The notes below the pieces were generated by a model, which was not told the DNA's origin, made no database searches, and saw nothing but the letters and a program-made list of their open reading frames with translations. From Minisyncoccota bacterium (GTDB taxonomy: Bacteria > Patescibacteriota > Minisyncoccia > UBA6257 > XYB1-36-10), in the NCBI GenBank assembly GCA_041651415.1, contig JBAZJH010000002.1, forward strand, positions 111,075 through 175,074: 64,000 nt of DNA. Direction: 5' to 3'. The translations under genes were made by a program, and so were the position numbers. This document shows, piece by piece, positions 28,071 through 55,208 of this stretch. Position 1 is the stretch's first letter. Each line of letters starts with the position of its first letter.

Positions 28071-29408
28071 ATGGGGGATTTTAAAAATTTTTGGGACGAG
28101 GCGATTTTTTATTTCAAACAACCGGAGATGCGGCTGTTTTGGATTTTTTTGTTTTTAGCTTTTTCAATATCGGGAATAGAACTTTTTTATCTGCCGGGAT
28201 ATTTATCTTTAGTGACGTCTTTGATATTTATAGGAATAGCGGGAATCGTATTTTTCAGTAGTTTTAAACTGGCAAAAAATAATTTTGCGGTGCAGTTTGA
28301 AAAAAGACAATTGGAAGGAATGGTAACTAATCTTTATGACGGGATAATAGCCTATGACACTAATTTTAGAGTGATGATGTTTAATAAGACGGCGGAAGCG
28401 ATATTTTTAATAAAAAAAGAGGAGATTATGGGAAAAGAGTTTACGCCGCAGTTTGCCCAAAATCCGAGATACACGAGACTGGCGCAGATAATGTTTCCGT
28501 CGCTTGCGCCGGTAGTGATAACGCGGTCGGAAGCGGGAGTTTTTCCGCAGATAGTGGATTTGTCTTTTTCAGAACCAACAGCGGAGTTCAGAGTGACGAC
28601 GGTAAAAATGACGGATGAAAACAAAAAACTTTTGGGATTTATGAAAATAGTAAGAGACAGAACAAGAGAAATAGAAGCGGGAAAATCAAAAAGCGAGTTT
28701 GTGACGGTGGCGGCTCATCAACTTCGAACGCCATTAAATGCGGTTTCGTGGACTTTTGAAACTTTGTCGGGGGAAAATAATTTGCCGGATGATTTGAAAG
28801 AACTGATAAAAAACGGCCGAGTGGCAACGGAGAAAGTTTTAAAAACGGTAAATGATTTGCTGGATGTGGCAAAAATTGAAGAAGGAAATTTCGGATACGC
28901 GATGGAGGAAGTGGAGTTTACCGGATTTTTAGAAAATATTTTGGCGCAAAAAATGATTGCGGCCAAACAATACGGAATAAGAATGTATTTTGACCGGCCG
29001 CAGGATAAAAACTTAAAGATGAAAATAGACGTAAAAAGAATGACAATGGCGCTCGATAATATTTTAGACAATGCCATAAAATATAACGTAAAAAATGGAG
29101 AGGTGACCGTAAAACTTGAAAAATTAGAGGGAAAACCATTCATACAGGTAAGCGTGACTGATACGGGAATAGGAATACCGCCCGAGGAAGTGAAAAAGCT
29201 TTTTACCAAGTTTTTCAGGGGAACAAATGTGCTGAAGTTTCAAACGGAGGGGACGGGGCTGGGGATTTATATCGCTAAGAATATAATCAGGAGACACGGA
29301 GGGGAAATTTACGCCGAATCGACTTTGAATCGAGGAACAACGATTTATTTTTCTTTACCAACGGACCCAAATTTGATTCCAATAAAAGAGGTTTTTGTGG
29401 AGGAATAA
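28071..29408 (+). CDS. sensor histidine kinase (N-terminal TM helices, PAS-like domain, HisKA + HATPase_c); orphan, no adjacent response regulator
   Basis: H-box FVTVAAHQLRTPLNAV; G-boxes GTGLGIYIAKNIIRRHGGEIYAES. Confidence 0.85.
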   Translation: MGDFKNFWDEAIFYFKQPEMRLFWIFLFLAFSISGIELFYLPGYLSLVTSLIFIGIAGIVFFSSFKLAKNNFAVQFEKRQLEGMVTNLYDGIIAYDTNFRVMMFNKTAEAIFLIKKEEIMGKEFTPQFAQNPRYTRLAQIMFPSLAPVVITRSEAGVFPQIVDLSFSEPTAEFRVTTVKMTDENKKLLGFMKIVRDRTREIEAGKSKSEFVTVAAHQLRTPLNAVSWTFETLSGENNLPDDLKELIKNGRVATEKVLKTVNDLLDVAKIEEGNFGYAMEEVEFTGFLENILAQKMIAAKQYGIRMYFDRPQDKNLKMKIDVKRMTMALDNILDNAIKYNVKNGEVTVKLEKLEGKPFIQVSVTDTGIGIPPEEVKKLFTKFFRGTNVLKFQTEGTGLGIYIAKNIIRRHGGEIYAESTLNRGTTIYFSLPTDPNLIPIKEVFVEE

Positions 29409-29641: not shown

Positions 29642-31390
29642 ATGAGAAAAAAGATAGAGAGCGAAGAATTCGGAGAAAGAGGCGTTTTTGAGTATTCAAA
29701 AAGACAGAAAAAAGCATCAACCGGAAAGAACGAAGCGGTTCGTTTTGTGCCGCTCGGAGGGCTGGAAGAAGTGGGAAGAAATATGATGTTTTTTGAATAT
29801 CAGGACGAAATAGTGATAATTGACGCCGGATTGCAATTTCCAGAGGAAGAAACGCCGGGAATAGATTTCATTATTCCAAACGTTTCTTATTTAGAGGAAA
29901 ACAAAGAAAGGGTAAAAGCTTTAATAATCACGCACGCGCATTTAGACCATATCGGGGCGATTCCTTACATAATCCATAAGATAGGAAATCCGATAATTTA
30001 TGCCACTAATTTAAGCAAAGAGCTGATTGTTAAAAGACAGGAAGAATTTCCGGCAAAAGTAAAACTTAATTTTCAAATAGTAAAAGAAGGAGATTCTTTT
30101 AAGATATCGGATAATTTTGAAGCGAAATTTTTCGGAGTGCCGCACACGGTGCCGGATTCGGTAGCGGTGATTTTAAAAACGCCGGTGGGGAACATGTGCA
30201 ACTTGGGGGATTTCAGAGTAAATTATGACAAAAAAGGAAATCCGCTGGGACTGGATAATTTTGAGAGAGTGGCGAAAGAGAATATTCATTCGCTCTTTAT
30301 GGATAGCACAAACGCGGAGAGGCCGGGGAAAACGGTTTCGGATGAAGTTGTCGAACAAAATTTGGAAAAGATATTCAGAGAAGCAAAAGGAAGAATAATT
30401 GTCGGAACTTTCGCTTCACTGCTTGATAGGATATATAAAGTGATTCAGATAGCCGATAGATTAGGAAGAAAGGTGGCGGTTTCCGGAAGGTCAATGCAGG
30501 AAAACATAAGAATCGCGCAAGGGTTAGGGTATATAAAAACAAAAAAAGGGGTTCTGATAGGACTTGATGAAATTCATAAATACAGAGACGATAAGCTTTT
30601 AATCTTATCGACAGGAGCGCAGGGGGAGCCGAACGCCAGTTTGATGAAAATAATAAACGGCGAGCATCGGCAGATAAGGATAAAGCCGGGAGATATGGTG
30701 ATATTTTCTTCATCCATAATTCCGGGGAATGAGAGAAGCGTGCAAACTTTGAAAGATAATTTAGCGAGGCAGGGAGCGATAATCCATCATTCGATGCTGA
30801 TGGATTTGCATGCCAGCGGACACGGATTTCAAGAAGATATTAAAACGGTAGTAAGAATTTTGAAGCCGAAATATTTCTTTCCGATTCACGGATATTATTT
30901 TATGAGATATTCAAATATAAACAATGCGGTGGAAGCGGATATGAAAAAAGAAAACTGCATAATAATGGATAACGGGCAGGTGGCGGAAATACAGAAATCG
31001 AAAATAGGAATTTTGCCGGAAACCGTGCCGGCTTATTACGTGATGGTGGACGGATTGGGCGTGGGGGATGTGGGAGAGGTGGTGCTTCGCGACCGGAAAA
31101 TGCTGTCGCAGGAAGGAATGCTTGTAATCATAACCACGCTTGATAAACAGACGGGAAGAATTTTGAAAAATCCGGATATTATTTCAAGAGGATTTATTTA
31201 TCTAAAAGAAAACAAGGAGATTTTAGACGAAGTGAGAAAAAGGATAAGAGGAATGCTTGGGAGAATGCCGGTTGACCAGCCGGTTGATTCGGATTATTTC
31301 AGAGGAATGATACGCGACCAGATCGGACAATTCTTATTTACAAAAACGAAGAGGCGGCCGATGATATTGCCGGTCATAATAGAGGTGTAG
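29642..31390 (+). CDS. rnj: ribonuclease J (metallo-beta-lactamase / beta-CASP)
   Basis: HxHxDH motif ITHAHLDHIGAIPYI, beta-CASP motifs and C-terminal domain; 582 aa. Confidence 0.9.
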   Translation: MRKKIESEEFGERGVFEYSKRQKKASTGKNEAVRFVPLGGLEEVGRNMMFFEYQDEIVIIDAGLQFPEEETPGIDFIIPNVSYLEENKERVKALIITHAHLDHIGAIPYIIHKIGNPIIYATNLSKELIVKRQEEFPAKVKLNFQIVKEGDSFKISDNFEAKFFGVPHTVPDSVAVILKTPVGNMCNLGDFRVNYDKKGNPLGLDNFERVAKENIHSLFMDSTNAERPGKTVSDEVVEQNLEKIFREAKGRIIVGTFASLLDRIYKVIQIADRLGRKVAVSGRSMQENIRIAQGLGYIKTKKGVLIGLDEIHKYRDDKLLILSTGAQGEPNASLMKIINGEHRQIRIKPGDMVIFSSSIIPGNERSVQTLKDNLARQGAIIHHSMLMDLHASGHGFQEDIKTVVRILKPKYFFPIHGYYFMRYSNINNAVEADMKKENCIIMDNGQVAEIQKSKIGILPETVPAYYVMVDGLGVGDVGEVVLRDRKMLSQEGMLVIITTLDKQTGRILKNPDIISRGFIYLKENKEILDEVRKRIRGMLGRMPVDQPVDSDYFRGMIRDQIGQFLFTKTKRRPMILPVIIEV

Positions 31391-31649: not shown

Positions 31650-32138
31650 ATGAACAGAGAAAAAATACTTGAAGGAGCCAAAGAATTTTTTTTTGAGGGG
31701 ATGTTGGCGAGATATTTCGGTCACCGAGATGGAAAAAAAATAACAAAGATAGAATCATCCGATGGTTGTAATGATATTGTGTTTAGAGATGGAGATTTTA
31801 AAGTGGTTGACCGGTTTTACATAACTCCGGATTCCGATTTTTCAGCGGGGACAACGACGATTTTCTTTGAGAACAAGCCGGTGTGGTGGATGGCTTATGG
31901 GGGATGTTATCCTGCTGAAGCCATTGCTTTTTTAAAAATGGCTTTAAAGGAGAATTATGAGAGAGGTACTTTTTTAGGGGGGAGAGGGCCAAAGTTAGTG
32001 GAAGAAGAAAATTTTGTTTATCGGAATGAAGTCAGAATGTCAGATTTCAAAATTTTTAATGGGCGGGAAAGTATTGTGGATTTAGAAGCTGAAAAGGAAT
32101 TGGGTTTTCATGAATATTTTGGCATGGCTTTAATATAG
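31650..32138 (+). CDS. hypothetical protein (162 aa) carrying a partial copy of the conserved leader
   Basis: Upstream ...AAGTCCGCTTACGCTAAAACTATGGCGAGAAAAAGGAGAAAGAAATG matches the leader family. Confidence 0.5.
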   Translation: MNREKILEGAKEFFFEGMLARYFGHRDGKKITKIESSDGCNDIVFRDGDFKVVDRFYITPDSDFSAGTTTIFFENKPVWWMAYGGCYPAEAIAFLKMALKENYERGTFLGGRGPKLVEEENFVYRNEVRMSDFKIFNGRESIVDLEAEKELGFHEYFGMALI

Positions 32139-32188: not shown

Positions 32189-32314
32189 TTATTAAATCTC
32201 CGCTTCAAACTTCGCGCGCTATCTTAAGGGGTTTGAAGCGGTAAAGATTTAATAAACCCACGCCTAGGGCGGGGTGAAACTTGAAGAAACCACGGCCGTA
32301 AGGCCGTGGAGTTT
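32189..32314 (-). repeat. copy B of the ~125-bp MITE/REP-like repeat (inverted orientation), abutting the ileS stop codon
   Basis: Reverse complement matches AAACTCCACGGCCTTACGGCCGTGG...CACCCCGCCCTAGGCGTGGGTTTATTAAATCTTT...GAGATTTAATAAA. Confidence 0.7.
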
Positions 32315-35300
32315 TATTTTAGAGAAACAGAGATTTCGCCGAAGTTTTCAAAAGGGGAGGTTTTATTGATTCTTTGAGTATTAGCTTTTGAATAAAAGAT
32401 TTTTTTAAGGGAGCAGGCGGAACAGATTTCTTTTTCTTTGGCAGAAAAAATAGAGGAAAGATTTTCGGGAGCGGATTCAATATAAAGATTAACAAGCTCA
32501 CCAGGCTTTAAGTCGGCTTCACCGCGGAGAGATTGAATAAGGCGGATGAATTCACGAACGAGGCCTTCGGATTTCAATTCGGGAGTGATATTCAAATCAA
32601 GCCAAACTTCTTTTTTGTCAGGAAGATTATTTTCGAAAGATACTTTTTTAACGTTGACTTCGTCTTTTAGAATTTCGAGAAGATTGGCGGATATTTTTTC
32701 CGCTGATTTTATTTTCATTTCAGAAAGAGGCTGACGGACTTTGATGCCTAAAGCAGAGCGTTCGGCAAGGCCGAGGCTGGACCAATCTTTTACAAGAGTC
32801 ATTTCTTTTAAAAGCTTTTCGTTAAATTTTTCAGCTTTTGGCCAAGAAGAAAGATGAACGGAATTTTTGAAACCGGATTCTTTTTTAAGGGAATTAAGGG
32901 AGAGATAAAGATAGTCGGAAAAGAAAGGCGCAAAAGGAGCCATAATTTTACTTAGGGCGAGGAGAGAATTATAAAGGGCAAAAGAAGCGTCAAGGCGGTC
33001 CCGACCGAAACGTCGGGACAAATTGCCTGAAGCGATTTGAAACCTTGAGCGGGAACGGCGGATAAACCAGCGGGAGATATCGCTTAAAAGTTCTTCAATT
33101 TTTCTGCCAGCCGGAGGAATGTCATATTTTTCAATAAGTTCTTCCGTTTCTTTTATGGTTTTAGAGACGCGGGAAGTGAGCCATAAATCCAGAGGATTAG
33201 TGAATTTTTTTACTGACCCAGAAAGAGAGCCGTAAGTTTTCAAATAAAGAAGGCAATTTTTGACGATATTAAAAACATTAAGCGAGACTTTTTTTAGGTC
33301 GTCCTCGTTAAAATTTTTAGTTTCACCAGCGTCGTTTAAAGTGAAAAGATACCAGCGGACAGAATCGGCGCCGTATTTATCAAACATTTCCCAAGGGTCG
33401 ACGATATTGCCGCGGGACTTGGACATTTTTTTGCCGTTTTTGTCGTTGATCAAGCCAAGAGAAATGACGTTTTTATAAGGAGCGCCTTTTTCAAGAAGGG
33501 TGGAGATGGCAAGAAGAGTGTAGAACCAGCCGCGGGTTTGATCCATAGCTTCCGAAATATAGTCGGCAGGGAAAATTTTTTTCTTATCAATCAGGTCCTT
33601 ATTTTTGAAAGGATAACCAGAGGCGGCAAAAGGCATAGCGCCGGAATCAAACCAGACGTCGACAAGTTCCGGAATTCTTTTCATTTTTTCGCCGCAAGAA
33701 CAAGGAATTTTGATTTCATCGATAAAAGGGCGGTGCGGGTCAAGAAATCCGTCGTCGTTTAAAGGAATATTTTTAAAAGGCAGAGGTTTCCATTCGGCAT
33801 TTTTCAGAAAAAAATCTTTAACTTTAAGATTGTTTCCGCTTAAAGATTCCGCGAGAACGCGAAGAGGGTCTTCGTGCCCGACGATGAGAATATTTTTGCC
33901 GTCATATTTTTTGTCGATTTCTTTCAGAGCTTTCATTATTCTTTTTCTGACTTGATTCAGATTTTCTCCGTTTGCCGGGGACTGCTCGTATTTTTCTTTA
34001 AAAGAAGAAAAAAGCTTTTTGTAAGAAGAAGCGGATTTTTCATTTAATTCTCCAAAATCGGTTTCGCGAAGACGTCTGTCAAAAATTAAAGTTTTTATTT
34101 TCAGGGATTTTTTGATAATTTCGGCGGTTTCTTTGGCTCTTTTTAAGTCAGAAGAAAAAATAATATCGATATTCAACTTCTTTAATTTTTCGGCGGATTT
34201 TTCAACTTGAAGACGGCCTTTTTTAGTAAGAGAATTGGCTGTTTTTTCAGGCCAAGAGGAATTGAATTTGTTTTTATTAGAAAGAGCTTCGCCGTGGCGG
34301 ATGGCAAAAAAAGAGTTTTTTGAAGGAAGGGGAGAATCGGCGAGCTCTTTTAAAGAGCTGATTATTTTTTCTTGTCCGCATTTATGGCATTGCCAGATGG
34401 GAAGAGGTGTGCCCCAATATCTTTCTCTTGAGAGCGCCCAATCTTTGATGTCTTTCAGCCATTCGCCAAAACGGCCTTCTTTGATGTGAAAAGGAATCCA
34501 GTTGATTTTTTCGTTATTTTTTAAGAGAGCGTCTTTTAAAGAAGACATTTTAATAAACCAAGAGGAGCGGGCGAAATAAATGACCGGAGTGTCGCAGCGC
34601 CAGCAGAAAGGATAGTCGTGCTCGTAAAGATTTTCCGACAAAAAGAAATTATTTTTTTTCAAATAAGCAATTATTTTTTCTTCGGTTTCTTTTGATTTAA
34701 CGAAAAGGCCGGACAGTTCCGGAACAAAATCTTTAAAGTGACCGGACTCGTCGACGGTATGAACTTCGGGGAGACCGACTTCTTGGCCGAGGCGATAATC
34801 ATCTTCGCCATACATAACGGCGGTGTGGACGACGCCGGTGCCGTCAGTCGTTGTGACAAAATCGGCGGGATAAACCTGATAAGATTTTTCTGATTGCAAT
34901 TCTTTTATTTTGAAAAGAGGTTCGTATTTTAAGCCAACCAAGTCGGCGCCGGAAAATTCTCTAATTTTTTCTCCAGTAAAAATATTTTTATCAGAAAGAG
35001 GAGAAGCAATAAAGGCTTCTTCGCCATCAACAGACTTTAAAAGCGAATACTTTATTTTTTTTCCGACAGCTAAGGCGACGTTTCCGGGAAGAGTCCAAGG
35101 AGTGGTGGTCCAAGATAAAATAAAAGTTTTATTGCCGATTCTAAAGTCGCCGATTTTTTGGCCGGGAAGGAGCTTAAACTTCAAAAAAACAGAATTGTCT
35201 TTAACGATTTTATAACCTTGGGCAAGTTCGTGGCTGGAAAGACCGGTGCCGCAGCGAGGGCACCAGGGAATTATTTTGTGTCCTTGATAGAGAAGATTTT

Positions 35301-35823
35301 TTTTATAAATTTCCGAAAGAAGCCACCAAACGCTTTCAATATATTCTGGCTTGTAGGTGATATAAGGATTTTCAGTATCAAGCCAAAAACCCATTCTGCT
35401 TGTGAGATTTTCCCAGAGTTCTTTATATTGCCAAACGGAAGCGCGGCATTTTTCGTTGAATTTTTTTATGCTTTCCGTTTTATCTTTCGGAACCAGATTT
35501 TCAATCTCTTTTTTGCTTTTCAAACCGAGTTCTTTTTCAACCTGGAGTTCAACCGGAAGGCCGTGTGTGTCCCAGCCGGCTCGGCGGGGAACATTGAATC
35601 CGCGCATATTTTTGTAGCGGCAAATGATGTCTTTATAAGAACGGGCTAAGACATGATGAAGACCGGGTTTGCCATTTGCGGTCGGGGGACCTTCGTAAAA
35701 AACGAAGGTTTTGTTTTTGGCGTTTTGTTTAAGGGATTTTTCAAAGATTTTTTCTCTTTCCCATTTAGCGAGGATTTCTTTTTCAAGTTCGGGCAGGCTT
35801 TTATTTTTTTTTTCTTCCGACAT
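32314..35823 (-). CDS. ileS: isoleucyl-tRNA synthetase (type 2) with a ~170-aa histidine-phosphatase (PGAM-like) domain inserted at about aa 500-670
   Basis: HIGH-type PGLHHV, KMSKS, CP1 editing domain, zinc-knuckle halves WQCHKCG ... IPCSCGEKM. Between them: AIRHGEALSN (RHG motif), RETDFGEL, ILIVGHEDPL - a histidine phosphatase superfamily fold. Confidence 0.9.
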   Translation of the reverse strand: MSEEKKNKSLPELEKEILAKWEREKIFEKSLKQNAKNKTFVFYEGPPTANGKPGLHHVLARSYKDIICRYKNMRGFNVPRRAGWDTHGLPVELQVEKELGLKSKKEIENLVPKDKTESIKKFNEKCRASVWQYKELWENLTSRMGFWLDTENPYITYKPEYIESVWWLLSEIYKKNLLYQGHKIIPWCPRCGTGLSSHELAQGYKIVKDNSVFLKFKLLPGQKIGDFRIGNKTFILSWTTTPWTLPGNVALAVGKKIKYSLLKSVDGEEAFIASPLSDKNIFTGEKIREFSGADLVGLKYEPLFKIKELQSEKSYQVYPADFVTTTDGTGVVHTAVMYGEDDYRLGQEVGLPEVHTVDESGHFKDFVPELSGLFVKSKETEEKIIAYLKKNNFFLSENLYEHDYPFCWRCDTPVIYFARSSWFIKMSSLKDALLKNNEKINWIPFHIKEGRFGEWLKDIKDWALSRERYWGTPLPIWQCHKCGQEKIISSLKELADSPLPSKNSFFAIRHGEALSNKNKFNSSWPEKTANSLTKKGRLQVEKSAEKLKKLNIDIIFSSDLKRAKETAEIIKKSLKIKTLIFDRRLRETDFGELNEKSASSYKKLFSSFKEKYEQSPANGENLNQVRKRIMKALKEIDKKYDGKNILIVGHEDPLRVLAESLSGNNLKVKDFFLKNAEWKPLPFKNIPLNDDGFLDPHRPFIDEIKIPCSCGEKMKRIPELVDVWFDSGAMPFAASGYPFKNKDLIDKKKIFPADYISEAMDQTRGWFYTLLAISTLLEKGAPYKNVISLGLINDKNGKKMSKSRGNIVDPWEMFDKYGADSVRWYLFTLNDAGETKNFNEDDLKKVSLNVFNIVKNCLLYLKTYGSLSGSVKKFTNPLDLWLTSRVSKTIKETEELIEKYDIPPAGRKIEELLSDISRWFIRRSRSRFQIASGNLSRRFGRDRLDASFALYNSLLALSKIMAPFAPFFSDYLYLSLNSLKKESGFKNSVHLSSWPKAEKFNEKLLKEMTLVKDWSSLGLAERSALGIKVRQPLSEMKIKSAEKISANLLEILKDEVNVKKVSFENNLPDKKEVWLDLNITPELKSEGLVREFIRLIQSLRGEADLKPGELVNLYIESAPENLSSIFSAKEKEICSACSLKKIFYSKANTQRINKTSPFENFGEISVSLK

Positions 35824-35937
35824 GGTGGCTTTATTCTATTATAAACAAAGGGTTTTGTTAAGATTGACGAGTTTAAATAAAAAGAGTATAAAACAAGCAG
35901 AAGTTTGAGAATAAAAAATGAAAGGGAGAAAGAAAAA

Positions 35938-36117
35938 ATGTTTTCACAATCTAACTGGAAATGGAAGTGCAAAGAATGCGGGCACGAGTTTTATGGATTG
36001 ACGGAAAAAGAAGTACCAATAAAATATAATTGTCCAAAATGTGGGAGTAAAGAAGTAGAGAGTAAAGGGCCGATAGTTCACGACATGCCGTTAGAAAATC
36101 CTCATATAAAATACTGA
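35938..36117 (+). CDS. small zinc-ribbon protein (CxxC...CxxC), hypothetical
   Basis: KCKECGHEF...NCPKCGSKE; likely start at the MFSQSNW Met inside the track ORF 35905..36117. Confidence 0.45.
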   Translation: MFSQSNWKWKCKECGHEFYGLTEKEVPIKYNCPKCGSKEVESKGPIVHDMPLENPHIKY

Positions 36118-36454: not shown

Positions 36455-36904
36455 ATGGCATTAGCAGAAAACAGAAAGGCGAGGTTTGATTATGAGATTT
36501 TAGACGAATTTGAAGCGGGAATAGAGCTTTTAGGAGGGGAAGTAAAATCAGCGAGAGAGGGAAGGATGAACTTGACCGGAGCGTACGCGATAATAAGGGG
36601 AGGGGAGATTTACCTTGTCGGAGCGGATATTCCTTTGTATCAGCCAAAAAACGCCTTAGAAGGTTATGACCCGCAAAGAACGAGACGGCTGCTTTTGCAT
36701 AAAAAAGAGATAGAAAGATTGGCGCAAAACGTGGAAGAGAGAGGGTTGACACTTGTGCCATTAAAAGTGTATGATAAATCCGGAAAAGTTAAGATTCTAC
36801 TTGGACTTTCCAGAAGAAAAAAGAAGCAGGATAAGAGAGAAAAGATAAAGAAAGAGGAAGTAAAGAAAGAAATGAAAAGAATATTGAAAAGAATTCGGGA
36901 ATAA
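36455..36904 (+). CDS. smpB: SsrA-binding protein SmpB
   Basis: ENRKARFDYEILDEFEAGIELLGGEVKS... canonical SmpB. Confidence 0.9.
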   Translation: MALAENRKARFDYEILDEFEAGIELLGGEVKSAREGRMNLTGAYAIIRGGEIYLVGADIPLYQPKNALEGYDPQRTRRLLLHKKEIERLAQNVEERGLTLVPLKVYDKSGKVKILLGLSRRKKKQDKREKIKKEEVKKEMKRILKRIRE

Positions 36905-36941: not shown

Positions 36942-37319
36942 GGGGATGTAAGGAATCGACGATTTAAGGACGGTAGAAATGGCAGGCAGGATTGAAGATC
37001 CTCAAAATCTTCAAAAAAGAAAAGTGCCAACTTTAATAGGCAGCCAGCTTTTGCTTTTGCTTAAGCTTGGAAGCCGTCTTTTATAGGCGGCCGCTCACTC
37101 TTTCTTTTTGCCTGAAGAGGTAAGAGGAGCGAAAAAAAATTCAGGCTTTTCCGACTCTTTTCTCGGTTTTATGGGAAGGAGAAAAAATAAAAGCCGAACA
37201 AACAGAATTTTCTGACGCGCTTCAAGTTTTGTTTGTAAAAAAAAGAGCGCGCCTAAGCCATGTAGAAATTTTTATCAGTCGTAAATCGGACATGGGTTCA
37301 AATCCCATCATCTCCACCA
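36942..37319 (+). ncRNA. ssrA: tmRNA (SsrA); predicted tag reading frame ...ANFNRQPAFAFA*
   Basis: 5' GGGGATGTAAGGAATCGACG and 3' tRNA-like end GGACATGGGTTCAAATCCCATCATCTCCACCA; internal ORF gcc aac ttt aat agg cag cca gct ttt gct ttt gct taa; directly downstream of smpB. Confidence 0.8.
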
Positions 37320-38517: not shown

Positions 38518-39042
38518 TTATAGTTTTTGGTCGGGGGGAAGACGGAAGAACGGATTTTTGCGAATAAAAGGTTTTTTTAAAGGATTCTTTTTCGGAAAGA
38601 TTTTAGGACGATTAAAATTACTGACAAGCCGGCCGGCTTTTTTGAGAATTTCAAAAGTGTTTTTGTGCTTACCTAAAACGGTTTTAGCTTCGGATAATCT
38701 AAACCAACCGAATCCCTCTTCGCGGGGGTCGATTTTAACTTCTTTTTGCTTGGTTTCGGCGAGATAAAAAGTGACGATTTTGAAGACTTTGTCTTTGCTT
38801 TCGCGGTCGTTAAAGGTGAATCTTTCAGAAACGCGGAAATTTCTAATGAGATGAAGATTGATTGATTTAATGCCGGTTTCTTCTTCCACTTCGCGAAAAG
38901 CGGTTTCAATGCTTCTTTCATTTTCCTCCATTTTTCCTTTAGGAAAATTCCAATAGTTGTTTCCATGATAAAGGAGAAGAAATTTTATTCCTTCTTCAGA
39001 ACGTCTGAAGATTATAATGCCGGAAGAAATTTGAGTTTTCAT
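38518..39042 (-). CDS. NUDIX hydrolase
   Basis: Nudix box GKMEENERSIETAFREVEEETGI. Confidence 0.75.
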   Translation of the reverse strand: MKTQISSGIIIFRRSEEGIKFLLLYHGNNYWNFPKGKMEENERSIETAFREVEEETGIKSINLHLIRNFRVSERFTFNDRESKDKVFKIVTFYLAETKQKEVKIDPREEGFGWFRLSEAKTVLGKHKNTFEILKKAGRLVSNFNRPKIFPKKNPLKKPFIRKNPFFRLPPDQKL

Positions 39043-54871: not shown

Positions 54872-55208
54872 TGGTGCCGCGAGAGGGAATCGAACCCCCG
54901 ACACGATGCTCTTCCAAATAATGAATCTCAAATTACTTTGAGGATTGGACTATATCATCACCCATATAAATGGGGCTAGGCGCTTCCTCCAACCTAACGT
55001 CGGAGTACTCCGTTAAGGATAGTCTCTGAACCTTTCTAGCTCCAGTTCATAAAAAAACTGGGGCTGGACTTGGCTGCTGATTGCCCAGCTTCAGTTTTTA
55101 AAAAAACTGAAGCTGGGTTTCCAGCAATTCACCTAGTTTTCATTTCCAAATTACTTCGGAACGGCCCAAAGAGTTTAGGCATCTGCTCTACCACTGAGCT
55201 ACCGCGGC
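54872..55208 (-). tRNA. tRNA-Phe (anticodon GAA) interrupted by a group I intron in the anticodon loop; exons at 55177-55208 and 54872-54914
   Basis: 5' exon GCCGCGGTAGCTCAGTGGTAGAGCAGATGCCT and 3' exon GAAGAGCATCGTGTCGGGGGTTCGATTCCCTCTCGCGGCACCA join to a canonical tRNA-Phe (loop CUGAAGA, variable loop GUGUC). Confidence 0.7.
54915..55176 (-). ncRNA. group I self-splicing intron (262 nt) within tRNA-Phe
   Basis: 5' splice after U33, with exon GCCU pairing to a GGGC internal guide near the intron start. The intron ends in G. The core contains CAGAGACTA ... ATATAGTCC, matching the P7 strands of characterized group I introns (cf. Tetrahymena CAGAGACUA / AUAUAGUC). Confidence 0.65.

Follow-up and report, generated by a model that had tools for sequence, protein, structure and literature searches.

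The closest described counterpart of the protein analysed here is the isoleucyl-tRNA synthetase (IleRS) of SR1, which was reported in a single sentence to be interrupted by a Nudix domain and two phosphoglycerate mutase (PGAM) domains, without analysis of the insertion sites, catalytic residues, origin or function (Kantor 2013, mBio, PMC3812714). Our full-text literature searches returned no description of such an architecture beyond this sentence. The present study concerns a stretch of 64,000 nucleotides from a Minisyncoccota bacterium (contig JBAZJH010000002.1, positions 111,075 to 175,074 of the forward strand; hereafter the window), whose minus strand encodes a type-2 IleRS with a histidine phosphatase domain embedded in its zinc knuckle. 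As in SR1, a His_Phos_1/PGAM-type domain interrupts the IleRS of a bacterium from the candidate phyla radiation. Unlike the SR1 enzyme, the window IleRS contains one His_Phos_1 domain and, according to Pfam, no NUDIX domain in its open reading frame (ORF), and it belongs to the Paceibacteria, with a standard genetic code.

Other known systems resemble one or the other half of the protein. The P. megaterium IleRS2 (PDB entries 8c8u-w) and the T. thermophilus IleRS (PDB entry 1ile) share the fold, the zinc knuckle and the DUF5915 domain of the window IleRS, with 31-35% identity, but have no domain in the knuckle loop. A precedent for an IleRS with an accessory enzyme domain is given by the family NF040702 ('ileS_w_GNAT'), but there the accessory domain is an N-acetyltransferase, and the window IleRS is not a member (307 bits against a cut-off of 1999). 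The RNase H/acid phosphatase proteins (PRK07238, Rv2228c type) and MutT1 (PDB entries 9cxx and 3fjy) likewise join a histidine phosphatase to an enzyme of nucleic acids or nucleotides in one bifunctional chain, but they are end-to-end fusions whose partner is not a synthetase, whereas in the window protein the phosphatase is inserted into the catalytic domain of its partner; on the PRK07238 model this protein scores 79 bits, below the cut-off of 326. Finally, the broad-specificity and metabolite phosphatases PhoE (1h2e/1ebb), PspA (4ij5), GpgP (6s2q) and CobC (6e4b), all from the dPGM branch, are only 23-25% identical to the insert and, unlike it, are stand-alone enzymes without a link to translation. 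As far as we found, the single-domain Parcubacteria form, its origin from a gene linked to argS and ileS, the conservation of its catalytic set and its recurrence in IleRS and valyl-tRNA synthetase (ValRS) seem to be undescribed.

The synthetase and its parts are laid out as follows, in coordinates of the window; motifs were placed from the translation.

32314..35823, minus strand: complete coding sequence of the 1169-aa type-2 isoleucyl-tRNA synthetase with its embedded phosphatase (stop codon at 32314-32316; ORF listing)
34336..35823, minus strand: IleRS N-terminal part, aa 1-496, with the first half of the Rossmann fold, the CP1 editing domain and the first half of the knuckle
35650-35667, minus strand: HIGH-type motif PGLHHV
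35086-35112, minus strand: CP1 editing motif WTTTPWTLP
34825-34842, minus strand: CP1 editing motif GTGVVH
34375-34395, minus strand: zinc knuckle, first half, WQCHKCG, aa 477-483
33742..34335, minus strand: inserted histidine phosphatase domain with its linkers, aa 497-694 (Pfam, alignment)
32317..33741, minus strand: IleRS C-terminal part, aa 695-1169, which includes the anticodon-binding and DUF5915 domains (Pfam, alignment, translation)
33718-33741, minus strand: DPHRPFID, start of the C-terminal part
33688-33708, minus strand: zinc knuckle, second half, IPCSCGE, aa 706-712
33640-33660, minus strand: DVWFDSG
33415-33429, minus strand: KMSKS, aa 799-803

A preliminary description of the window, made from its letters, had proposed this 1169-aa ileS ORF, and the ORF listing bears it out, as does the NCBIfam model TIGR00392 (ileS), which scores 859 bits against a cut-off of 621 with a match that is broken after residue 509. 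Pfam finds the domains tRNA-synt_1, His_Phos_1, Anticodon_1, tRNA-synt_1g and DUF5915 (E=4e-12 for the last) in the ORF. Within the motifs PGLHHV, KMSKS, WTTTPWT and GTGVVH, most residues are invariant among 118 orthologues, among them all of TTT and the MSK at the centre of KMSKS, and the remaining ones are kept in at least 90% of them, with the exception of the variable middle residue of GTGVVH. The full-length AlphaFold2 (AF2) model has a mean predicted local distance difference test score (pLDDT) of 92.0 and a predicted template modelling score (pTM) of 0.85, and its top Foldseek match in the PDB is the P. megaterium IleRS2 (8c8w, E=1.3e-88), with 1ile (E=1.3e-76) and the yeast IleRS also being retrieved. 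The ileS model, the class I motifs, the CP1 motifs, DUF5915 and the IleRS2-like fold all place the protein among the type-2 enzymes. Its synthetic site, CP1 editing site and anticodon-binding and C-terminal domains are intact, so that it is a complete IleRS, predicted to aminoacylate tRNA-Ile. No second ileS was seen within the 64-kb window.

The insertion lies in the zinc knuckle, which falls between the core motifs ISRxRxWGxPxPxW and DxWFDSG. We aligned the window protein with five insert-less Patescibacteria IleRSs (934-970 aa, 40-45% identical to it): its approximately 195 extra residues, bounded by ...SSLKELA and GFLDPHRPFID, sit exactly between the CxxC and CxC halves of the knuckle, which the insert-less enzymes close with a short loop (for example ...SANELEK-ESGIKVTDLHKD...). 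The location inside the knuckle loop of a type-2 IleRS that had been claimed at the outset is thus the one found in this alignment. As to the excess length, put beforehand at about 130-190 aa, the lower figure agrees with the P. megaterium IleRS2 chains (1028-1032 residues, about 130 aa shorter), but the difference from the insert-less relatives is larger, 199-235 aa. The segment IPCSCGE...DVWFDSG aligns with residues 488-522 of 1ile, with Cys708 and Cys710 corresponding to Cys502 and Cys504, which are reported in the 1998 structure paper to form one zinc site with Cys461 and Cys464. The knuckle cysteines are retained in 112-116 of 119 orthologues. In a Liptonbacteria IleRS (P0128), all four have been lost (QTEDG..., IKS-EKG) and the phosphatase insert, here with a 12-residue deletion in its cap region, has been kept. 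In the AF2 model, the first strand of the domain (aa 504-509) and a late one (aa 678-680) reach the two knuckle halves via short linkers. In the histidine phosphatase fold the two chain ends are near each other, a favourable geometry for insertion into a loop.

The arrangement is shared by many genomes. An identical protein (P0121) is present in NCBI, JGI, ENA and Logan, on a 206.7-kb contig of 'Candidatus Paceibacterota bacterium', and the 120 best full-length homologues, which are 49-88% identical to it and mostly 1130-1240 aa long, combine PF00300 with the IleRS domains (PF00133) without exception; Liptonbacteria, Jorgensenbacteria, Wolfebacteria and Parcubacteria entries from 2015-era genomes are among them. 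The same junctions are seen in partial proteins of Uhr-, Niyogi-, Nealson-, Magasanik-, Sung- and Colwellbacteria, and the insert is also found in Nomura-, Staskawicz- and Kaiserbacteria genomes; a scan of genome contigs with a single-sequence query gave 19 loci, about 11 of them with the insert. IleRS with the insert is thus the usual form in much of the Parcubacteria, where public annotation of these sequences is generic ('class I tRNA ligase family protein'). Three candidate artefacts were rejected. A frameshift or assembly chimera, which the preliminary description had named as a possible undoing of its observation, is not borne out by a continuous ORF, an identical protein in four sources and homologues that are all alike; an intein or other mobile insertion does not fit a segment (aa 497-694) in which Pfam finds only His_Phos_1 and neither a Hint nor a homing-endonuclease domain; and for a mis-start, the 1373-aa homologue P0151 proved to be a mere N-terminal over-extension.

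We then turn to the inserted domain itself. A PGAM-like domain had been proposed for the region 33816-34326, which corresponds to aa 500-669, and all of the motifs quoted beforehand are present. Profile search and structure prediction both agree with this proposal at the level of the superfamily: Pfam His_Phos_1 (PF00300) matches aa 507-678 (33790-34305) with E=1.2e-34 and 120.1 bits, against a gathering threshold of 21.7, over profile positions 3-176 of 194, and the insert blocks of the AF2 model (pLDDT 83-98) fold as a plain, independent histidine phosphatase. Besides the profile score and the alpha/beta fold, the insert has the RHG motif and the second arginine, histidine and acidic donor of the superfamily. 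Their conservation was read from 119 full-length orthologues, about 50% identical, aligned with MAFFT.

34291..34299, minus strand: RHG motif, in AIRHGEALSN, R509, H510 (predicted phospho-accepting nucleophile) and G511; R and H in 119/119, G in 112/119
34243..34260, minus strand: SSWPEK motif, aa 522-527 (alignment with free-standing relatives)
34138..34140, minus strand: R562, second arginine of the phosphate pocket, in 119/119
34063..34065, minus strand: E587, predicted general acid/base, in the motif RLRETDFGELNEK; 117 E and 2 D of 119
33874..33876, minus strand: H650, second catalytic histidine, in ILIVGHEDPL, in 119/119

Further conserved residues of the insert are Glu620 (119/119), Arg628 (118/119) and Asn516 (108/119). 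The ratio of nonsynonymous to synonymous substitution rates (dN/dS; Nei-Gojobori, against the DNA of the closest orthologue, L001) reaches 0.22 in the insert, against 0.073 in the remainder of the gene, and the mean pairwise column identity is 0.43 for the insert compared with 0.47 for the anticodon-binding and C-terminal part (118 orthologues). The catalytic set of this PhoE/PspA/CobC-like histidine phosphatase is thus intact and the domain is predicted to be active; as the catalytic residues are invariant across the clade, the whole protein is most likely a bifunctional synthetase-phosphatase.

This branch is close to small-molecule phosphatases. A PDB sequence search retrieved PhoE with an E value of about 2e-12, and the structures nearest to the insert are small-molecule phosphatases rather than mutases. 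The models for individual functions all remain below their cut-offs: the CobC models TIGR03162 (81.6 against 162.9 bits) and PRK15004 (56.8 against 250), the PspA model PhserinePhPspA (66.2 against 350), the GpmB model PRK03482 (59.9 against 261) and the cofactor-dependent phosphoglycerate mutase (dPGM) equivalogs NF038349 (dPGM_arch; 94.4 against 225), PRK01295 (44.5 against 316) and PRK01112 (39.8 against 320). The term 'PGAM-like' therefore holds for the superfamily and not for a dPGM, CobC, PspA or GpmB enzyme.

Where does the domain come from? When the insert alone was used as the query, free-standing proteins were retrieved with lengths of 179-217 aa and identities to it of 38-56% (43-56% among the thirty best); some carry the label Portnoybacteria or Staskawiczbacteria. 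Neighbour-joining groups these relatives with the fused domains in one clade, apart from 67 other His_Phos_1 hits; the two forms interleave at the base of the clade, where the resolution is too low to count independent insertions. The free proteins, which belong to other Patescibacteria (for example P0245, P0261, P0247 and P0279), share with the insert its clade, its catalytic columns and its neighbourhood at 43-56% identity; unlike the insert, they are separate polypeptides and are more basic (median isoelectric point 9.9 and a net charge of +9.6 per 100 aa for the free-standing clade, against +2.6 per 100 aa for the fused domains; the other hits have +1.4). An S(S/C)WPEK motif after RHGE occurs in the window insert and in the free forms displayed and is absent from the other His_Phos_1 proteins shown, its positions being only moderately conserved among the fused orthologues.

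For seven free-standing relatives, long contigs allowed the gene neighbourhood to be checked. Each of them is encoded between an upstream argS and a downstream insert-less type-2 ileS, on the strand of these genes; four directly adjoin ileS, which they overlap by 4 bp or from which they are no more than 9 bp away, and one to three short genes stand between the other three and ileS (an NYN nuclease; an unknown ORF; a toxin-antitoxin pair with an unknown ORF). The wider neighbourhood of the free copies comprises smpB, infC, rpmI and rplT, often with a Nudix gene, and recO, and it corresponds to the surroundings of ileS in the window. The gene of an out-group histidine phosphatase, from an Andersenbacteria genome of the same superphylum, lies away from ileS. 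The simplest reading of these sequence data would be that an ancestor of this Parcubacteria group had a phosphatase gene in partnership with argS and ileS, and that this gene was transferred into the part of ileS that encodes the knuckle loop. Descent from a gene linked to argS and ileS would mean that the fusion hard-wires an older operon partnership. Taken jointly, the architecture, the intactness of the catalytic set and an origin from a neighbouring gene have our firm confidence. The pattern of fused and adjacent ('Rosetta-stone') forms speaks for a functional link but does not prove that the substrate is shared.

The insertion recurs in other synthetases. Multi-domain synthetases were among the best hits of a profile search of 1.8 billion representatives: IleRSs with two His_Phos_1 domains (P0363, P0368, P0403 and P0416), ValRSs with two (P0440, at L030 703-5319, and P0504) and a synthetase fragment with four (P0361). 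The cluster of P0403 (L029 8001-12260) is found on contigs of up to 1.06 Mb and may not be from Patescibacteria; SLH-domain and DAHP-synthase genes are its neighbours. At least three insertion sites are used, and the following can be distinguished: the loop used in the window protein (site A, from ISRxRxWGxPxPxW to DxWFxSG), which is also occupied in ValRS, by single or tandem domains; a position just after WFESGSMPYA (site B); and the junction between the catalytic body and the anticodon-binding domain (site C). The R, H, R, E and H residues are intact in nearly all domains of the multi-copy synthetases. These domains fall outside the clade of the window in a coarse neighbour-joining tree, so that either an old synthetase-associated lineage has diversified or the capture happened more than once. 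NUDIX was found in none of the 16 multi-domain hits scanned, and the Nudix-containing SR1 IleRS was not retrieved, perhaps because it is truncated by standard-code gene calling. Many proteins of about 400-430 aa made of two tandem His_Phos_1 domains are also among the best matches of the insert profile (P0364, P0369, P0375 and about 50 others). An IleRS with an embedded phosphatase, which had been called unusual, is less singular than was thought, being the standard IleRS of a large Parcubacteria clade, with a mention in SR1 since 2013 and multi-domain relatives in IleRS and ValRS; a second active site in the catalytic core of a synthetase is nevertheless rare, and aminoacyl-tRNA synthetases are among the most conserved enzymes.

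We may now consider what the phosphatase could do. H510 would attack a phosphomonoester to form a phospho-histidine, the phosphate being held by R509, R562 and H650, and E587 would protonate the leaving group and then activate a water molecule. We infer that the phosphatase would serve aminoacylation, and that its substrate would most probably be a phosphomonoester of the nucleotide type encountered at class Ia synthetases. One candidate would be the phosphorylated 3' end of tRNA (a 3'-phosphate or what remains of a cyclic or pyrophosphate end), which would be converted to a chargeable 3'-OH; another would be an adenine-nucleotide by-product. The products of argS, ileS and valS share only ATP/AMP/PPi and the CCA end of tRNA, which hints at a nucleotide or a tRNA end. 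A nucleotide-type substrate is further favoured by the basic character of the free clade, by the pairing with Nudix in SR1 and by the fact that Nudix-histidine phosphatase fusions such as MutT1 act on nucleotides. As for tRNA ends, toxSAS toxins pyrophosphorylate the CCA (3') end and thereby block aminoacylation, and phosphate-blocked 3' ends arise from tRNases. That the substrate belongs to this class, a nucleotide-type phosphomonoester or a tRNA end, seems to us evenly poised between right and wrong, and we would judge the whole explanation, inferred substrate class included, in the same way. The roles put forward in the preliminary description, on a nucleotide or alarmone or on a tRNA 2'/3'-phosphate, would be compatible with these findings. 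Healing of the tRNA 3' end specifically, the version that we prefer, is a doubtful refinement, and still somewhat more doubtful is its fullest form, in which the insert and the free relatives linked to argS and ileS would remove a 2'/3'-phosphate or, with a Nudix partner, a toxin-installed 3'-pyrophosphate from the CCA end.

Several points weigh against this explanation. The nearest characterised relatives are all small-molecule phosphatases, and no His_Phos_1 enzyme acting on RNA ends is known to us. As a group, the fused domains are only mildly basic, like the rest of IleRS, and the proteins of these low-GC genomes are generally rich in lysine. A dosage effect or 'hitch-hiking' would explain the tandem copies of other synthetases equally well, and adjacent genes may be co-expressed without sharing a substrate.

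The pattern as a whole argues for an unrecognised phosphate-removing step tied to tRNA charging or to nearby nucleotide housekeeping in organisms with minimal genomes. If the substrate were a tRNA end, the domain would represent a new class of RNA-repair enzyme and a possible counter-measure to tRNA-targeting toxins. Healing of the tRNA 3' end would be the first case of RNA-end repair in the histidine phosphatase superfamily, and the protein would be the first synthetase to repair its own tRNA substrate, by means of a domain recruited repeatedly by IleRS and ValRS in ultra-small bacteria. If the substrate were a metabolite, we would be dealing with an unusual metabolic enzyme embedded in the translation apparatus.

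The alternative that deserves most attention is a hitch-hiking housekeeping phosphatase, acting on phosphoserine or sugar phosphates or broadly like PhoE, for which co-expression would be the sole link to IleRS. We consider it rather unlikely: insertion into the core of an essential enzyme is risky when an adjacent operon gene already gave co-expression, the association is specific, with all seven free copies lying between argS and ileS and the out-group copy elsewhere, and the insertion recurs at several sites of IleRS and ValRS. The domain could instead be a protein phosphatase that removes phospho-His, phospho-Ser or phospho-Thr from the synthetase or from signalling proteins, as SixA and the reported mycobacterial MutT1 domain do, but its likeness to SixA and MutT1 is clearly below that to small-molecule phosphatases and the kinase gene seen near ileS does not belong to the conserved neighbourhood of the related loci, which makes this role improbable.

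More improbable still are a genuine mutase and a dead insert. A cofactor-dependent phosphoglycerate mutase moonlighting in IleRS to provide a glycolytic step is at odds with the dPGM_arch score (94 bits against 225) and with those of the other dPGM equivalogs (40-60 against 261-320), as well as with the minimal core of about 185 aa in the insert, which has the size of the small phosphatases (171-228 residues) and not that of PGAM1 (243). A catalytically dead structural or tRNA-binding insert, comparable with the lineage-specific insertions of class I synthetases, draws some support from its position in a surface loop that accommodates lineage-specific elements in other class Ia enzymes, and from the loss of E or H in a few domains of multi-copy synthetases (P0430_660, P0504_713 and P0440_445). 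But in the clade of the window the five catalytic residues are conserved across about 50% divergence, and likewise in the free relatives; a degenerate structural insert, which the preliminary description had left as an option, is disfavoured by the invariance of R509, H510, R562 and H650 and by the 117 E and 2 D at position 587. An artefact or selfish element, whether frameshift, chimera, mis-called three-gene fusion or intein-like insertion, has a practically negligible likelihood in view of the continuous ORF, the four sources, the shared architecture of the 120 orthologues and the lack of Hint and homing-endonuclease domains, and the regions of the two knuckle halves (aa ~470-489 and 700-719) are modelled with block pLDDT values of 94-96.

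The surroundings of ileS in the window contain the following features.

36455-36904, plus strand: smpB, directly followed by the tmRNA gene
36942-37319, plus strand: tmRNA gene (Rfam, 136.7 bits; ARAGORN tag peptide GRSLFLFA*)
38518-39042, minus strand: Nudix hydrolase gene, beside rplT and 2.7 kb from ileS
35905-36117, plus strand: small zinc-ribbon-like ORF with two CxxC pairs (WKCKECGHEF...YNCPKCGSKE), in the 630-bp spacer between the start of ileS and smpB
31650-32138, plus strand: DUF5680 protein of 162 aa, directly downstream of ileS and convergent with it
29642-31390: RNase J, preceding the DUF5680 gene
28071-29408: PAS histidine kinase, preceding the DUF5680 gene along with RNase J

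The genes infC and rplT come after the tmRNA gene, and a block of smpB, infC, rpmI and rplT also adjoins ileS in related loci. A Nudix gene occupies the same place in three contigs with a free phosphatase (L020 181-639, L023 1542-2024 and L027 791-1231), and this recurring neighbour is intriguing given the report of Nudix and two PGAM domains in the SR1 IleRS. Upstream of ileS, no T-box or other Rfam leader was found by Rfam. Toxin-type genes were seen beside several of the synthetase or phosphatase genes, namely an RHH/YafQ-like pair between a free phosphatase and ileS (L032 4672-5156), a PemK/MazF-family toxin just upstream of the two-phosphatase ValRS (L030 162-596) and an NYN nuclease between phosphatase and ileS (L028 5561-6097); their presence may be due to chance. 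For the insert and one free-standing relative, a PADLOC defence-system scan gave nothing meaningful.

Elsewhere in the window, a tRNA gene appears to be interrupted by a group I intron.

54872-55208, minus strand: tRNA gene split in its anticodon loop by a group I intron of about 262 nt (ARAGORN, introns allowed)
54926-55186, minus strand: group I intron RF00028 (Rfam, 109.8 bits)

The anticodon of this tRNA would be Phe GAA, or Met/Ser depending on the splice point, and its 3' half ends in an encoded CCA.

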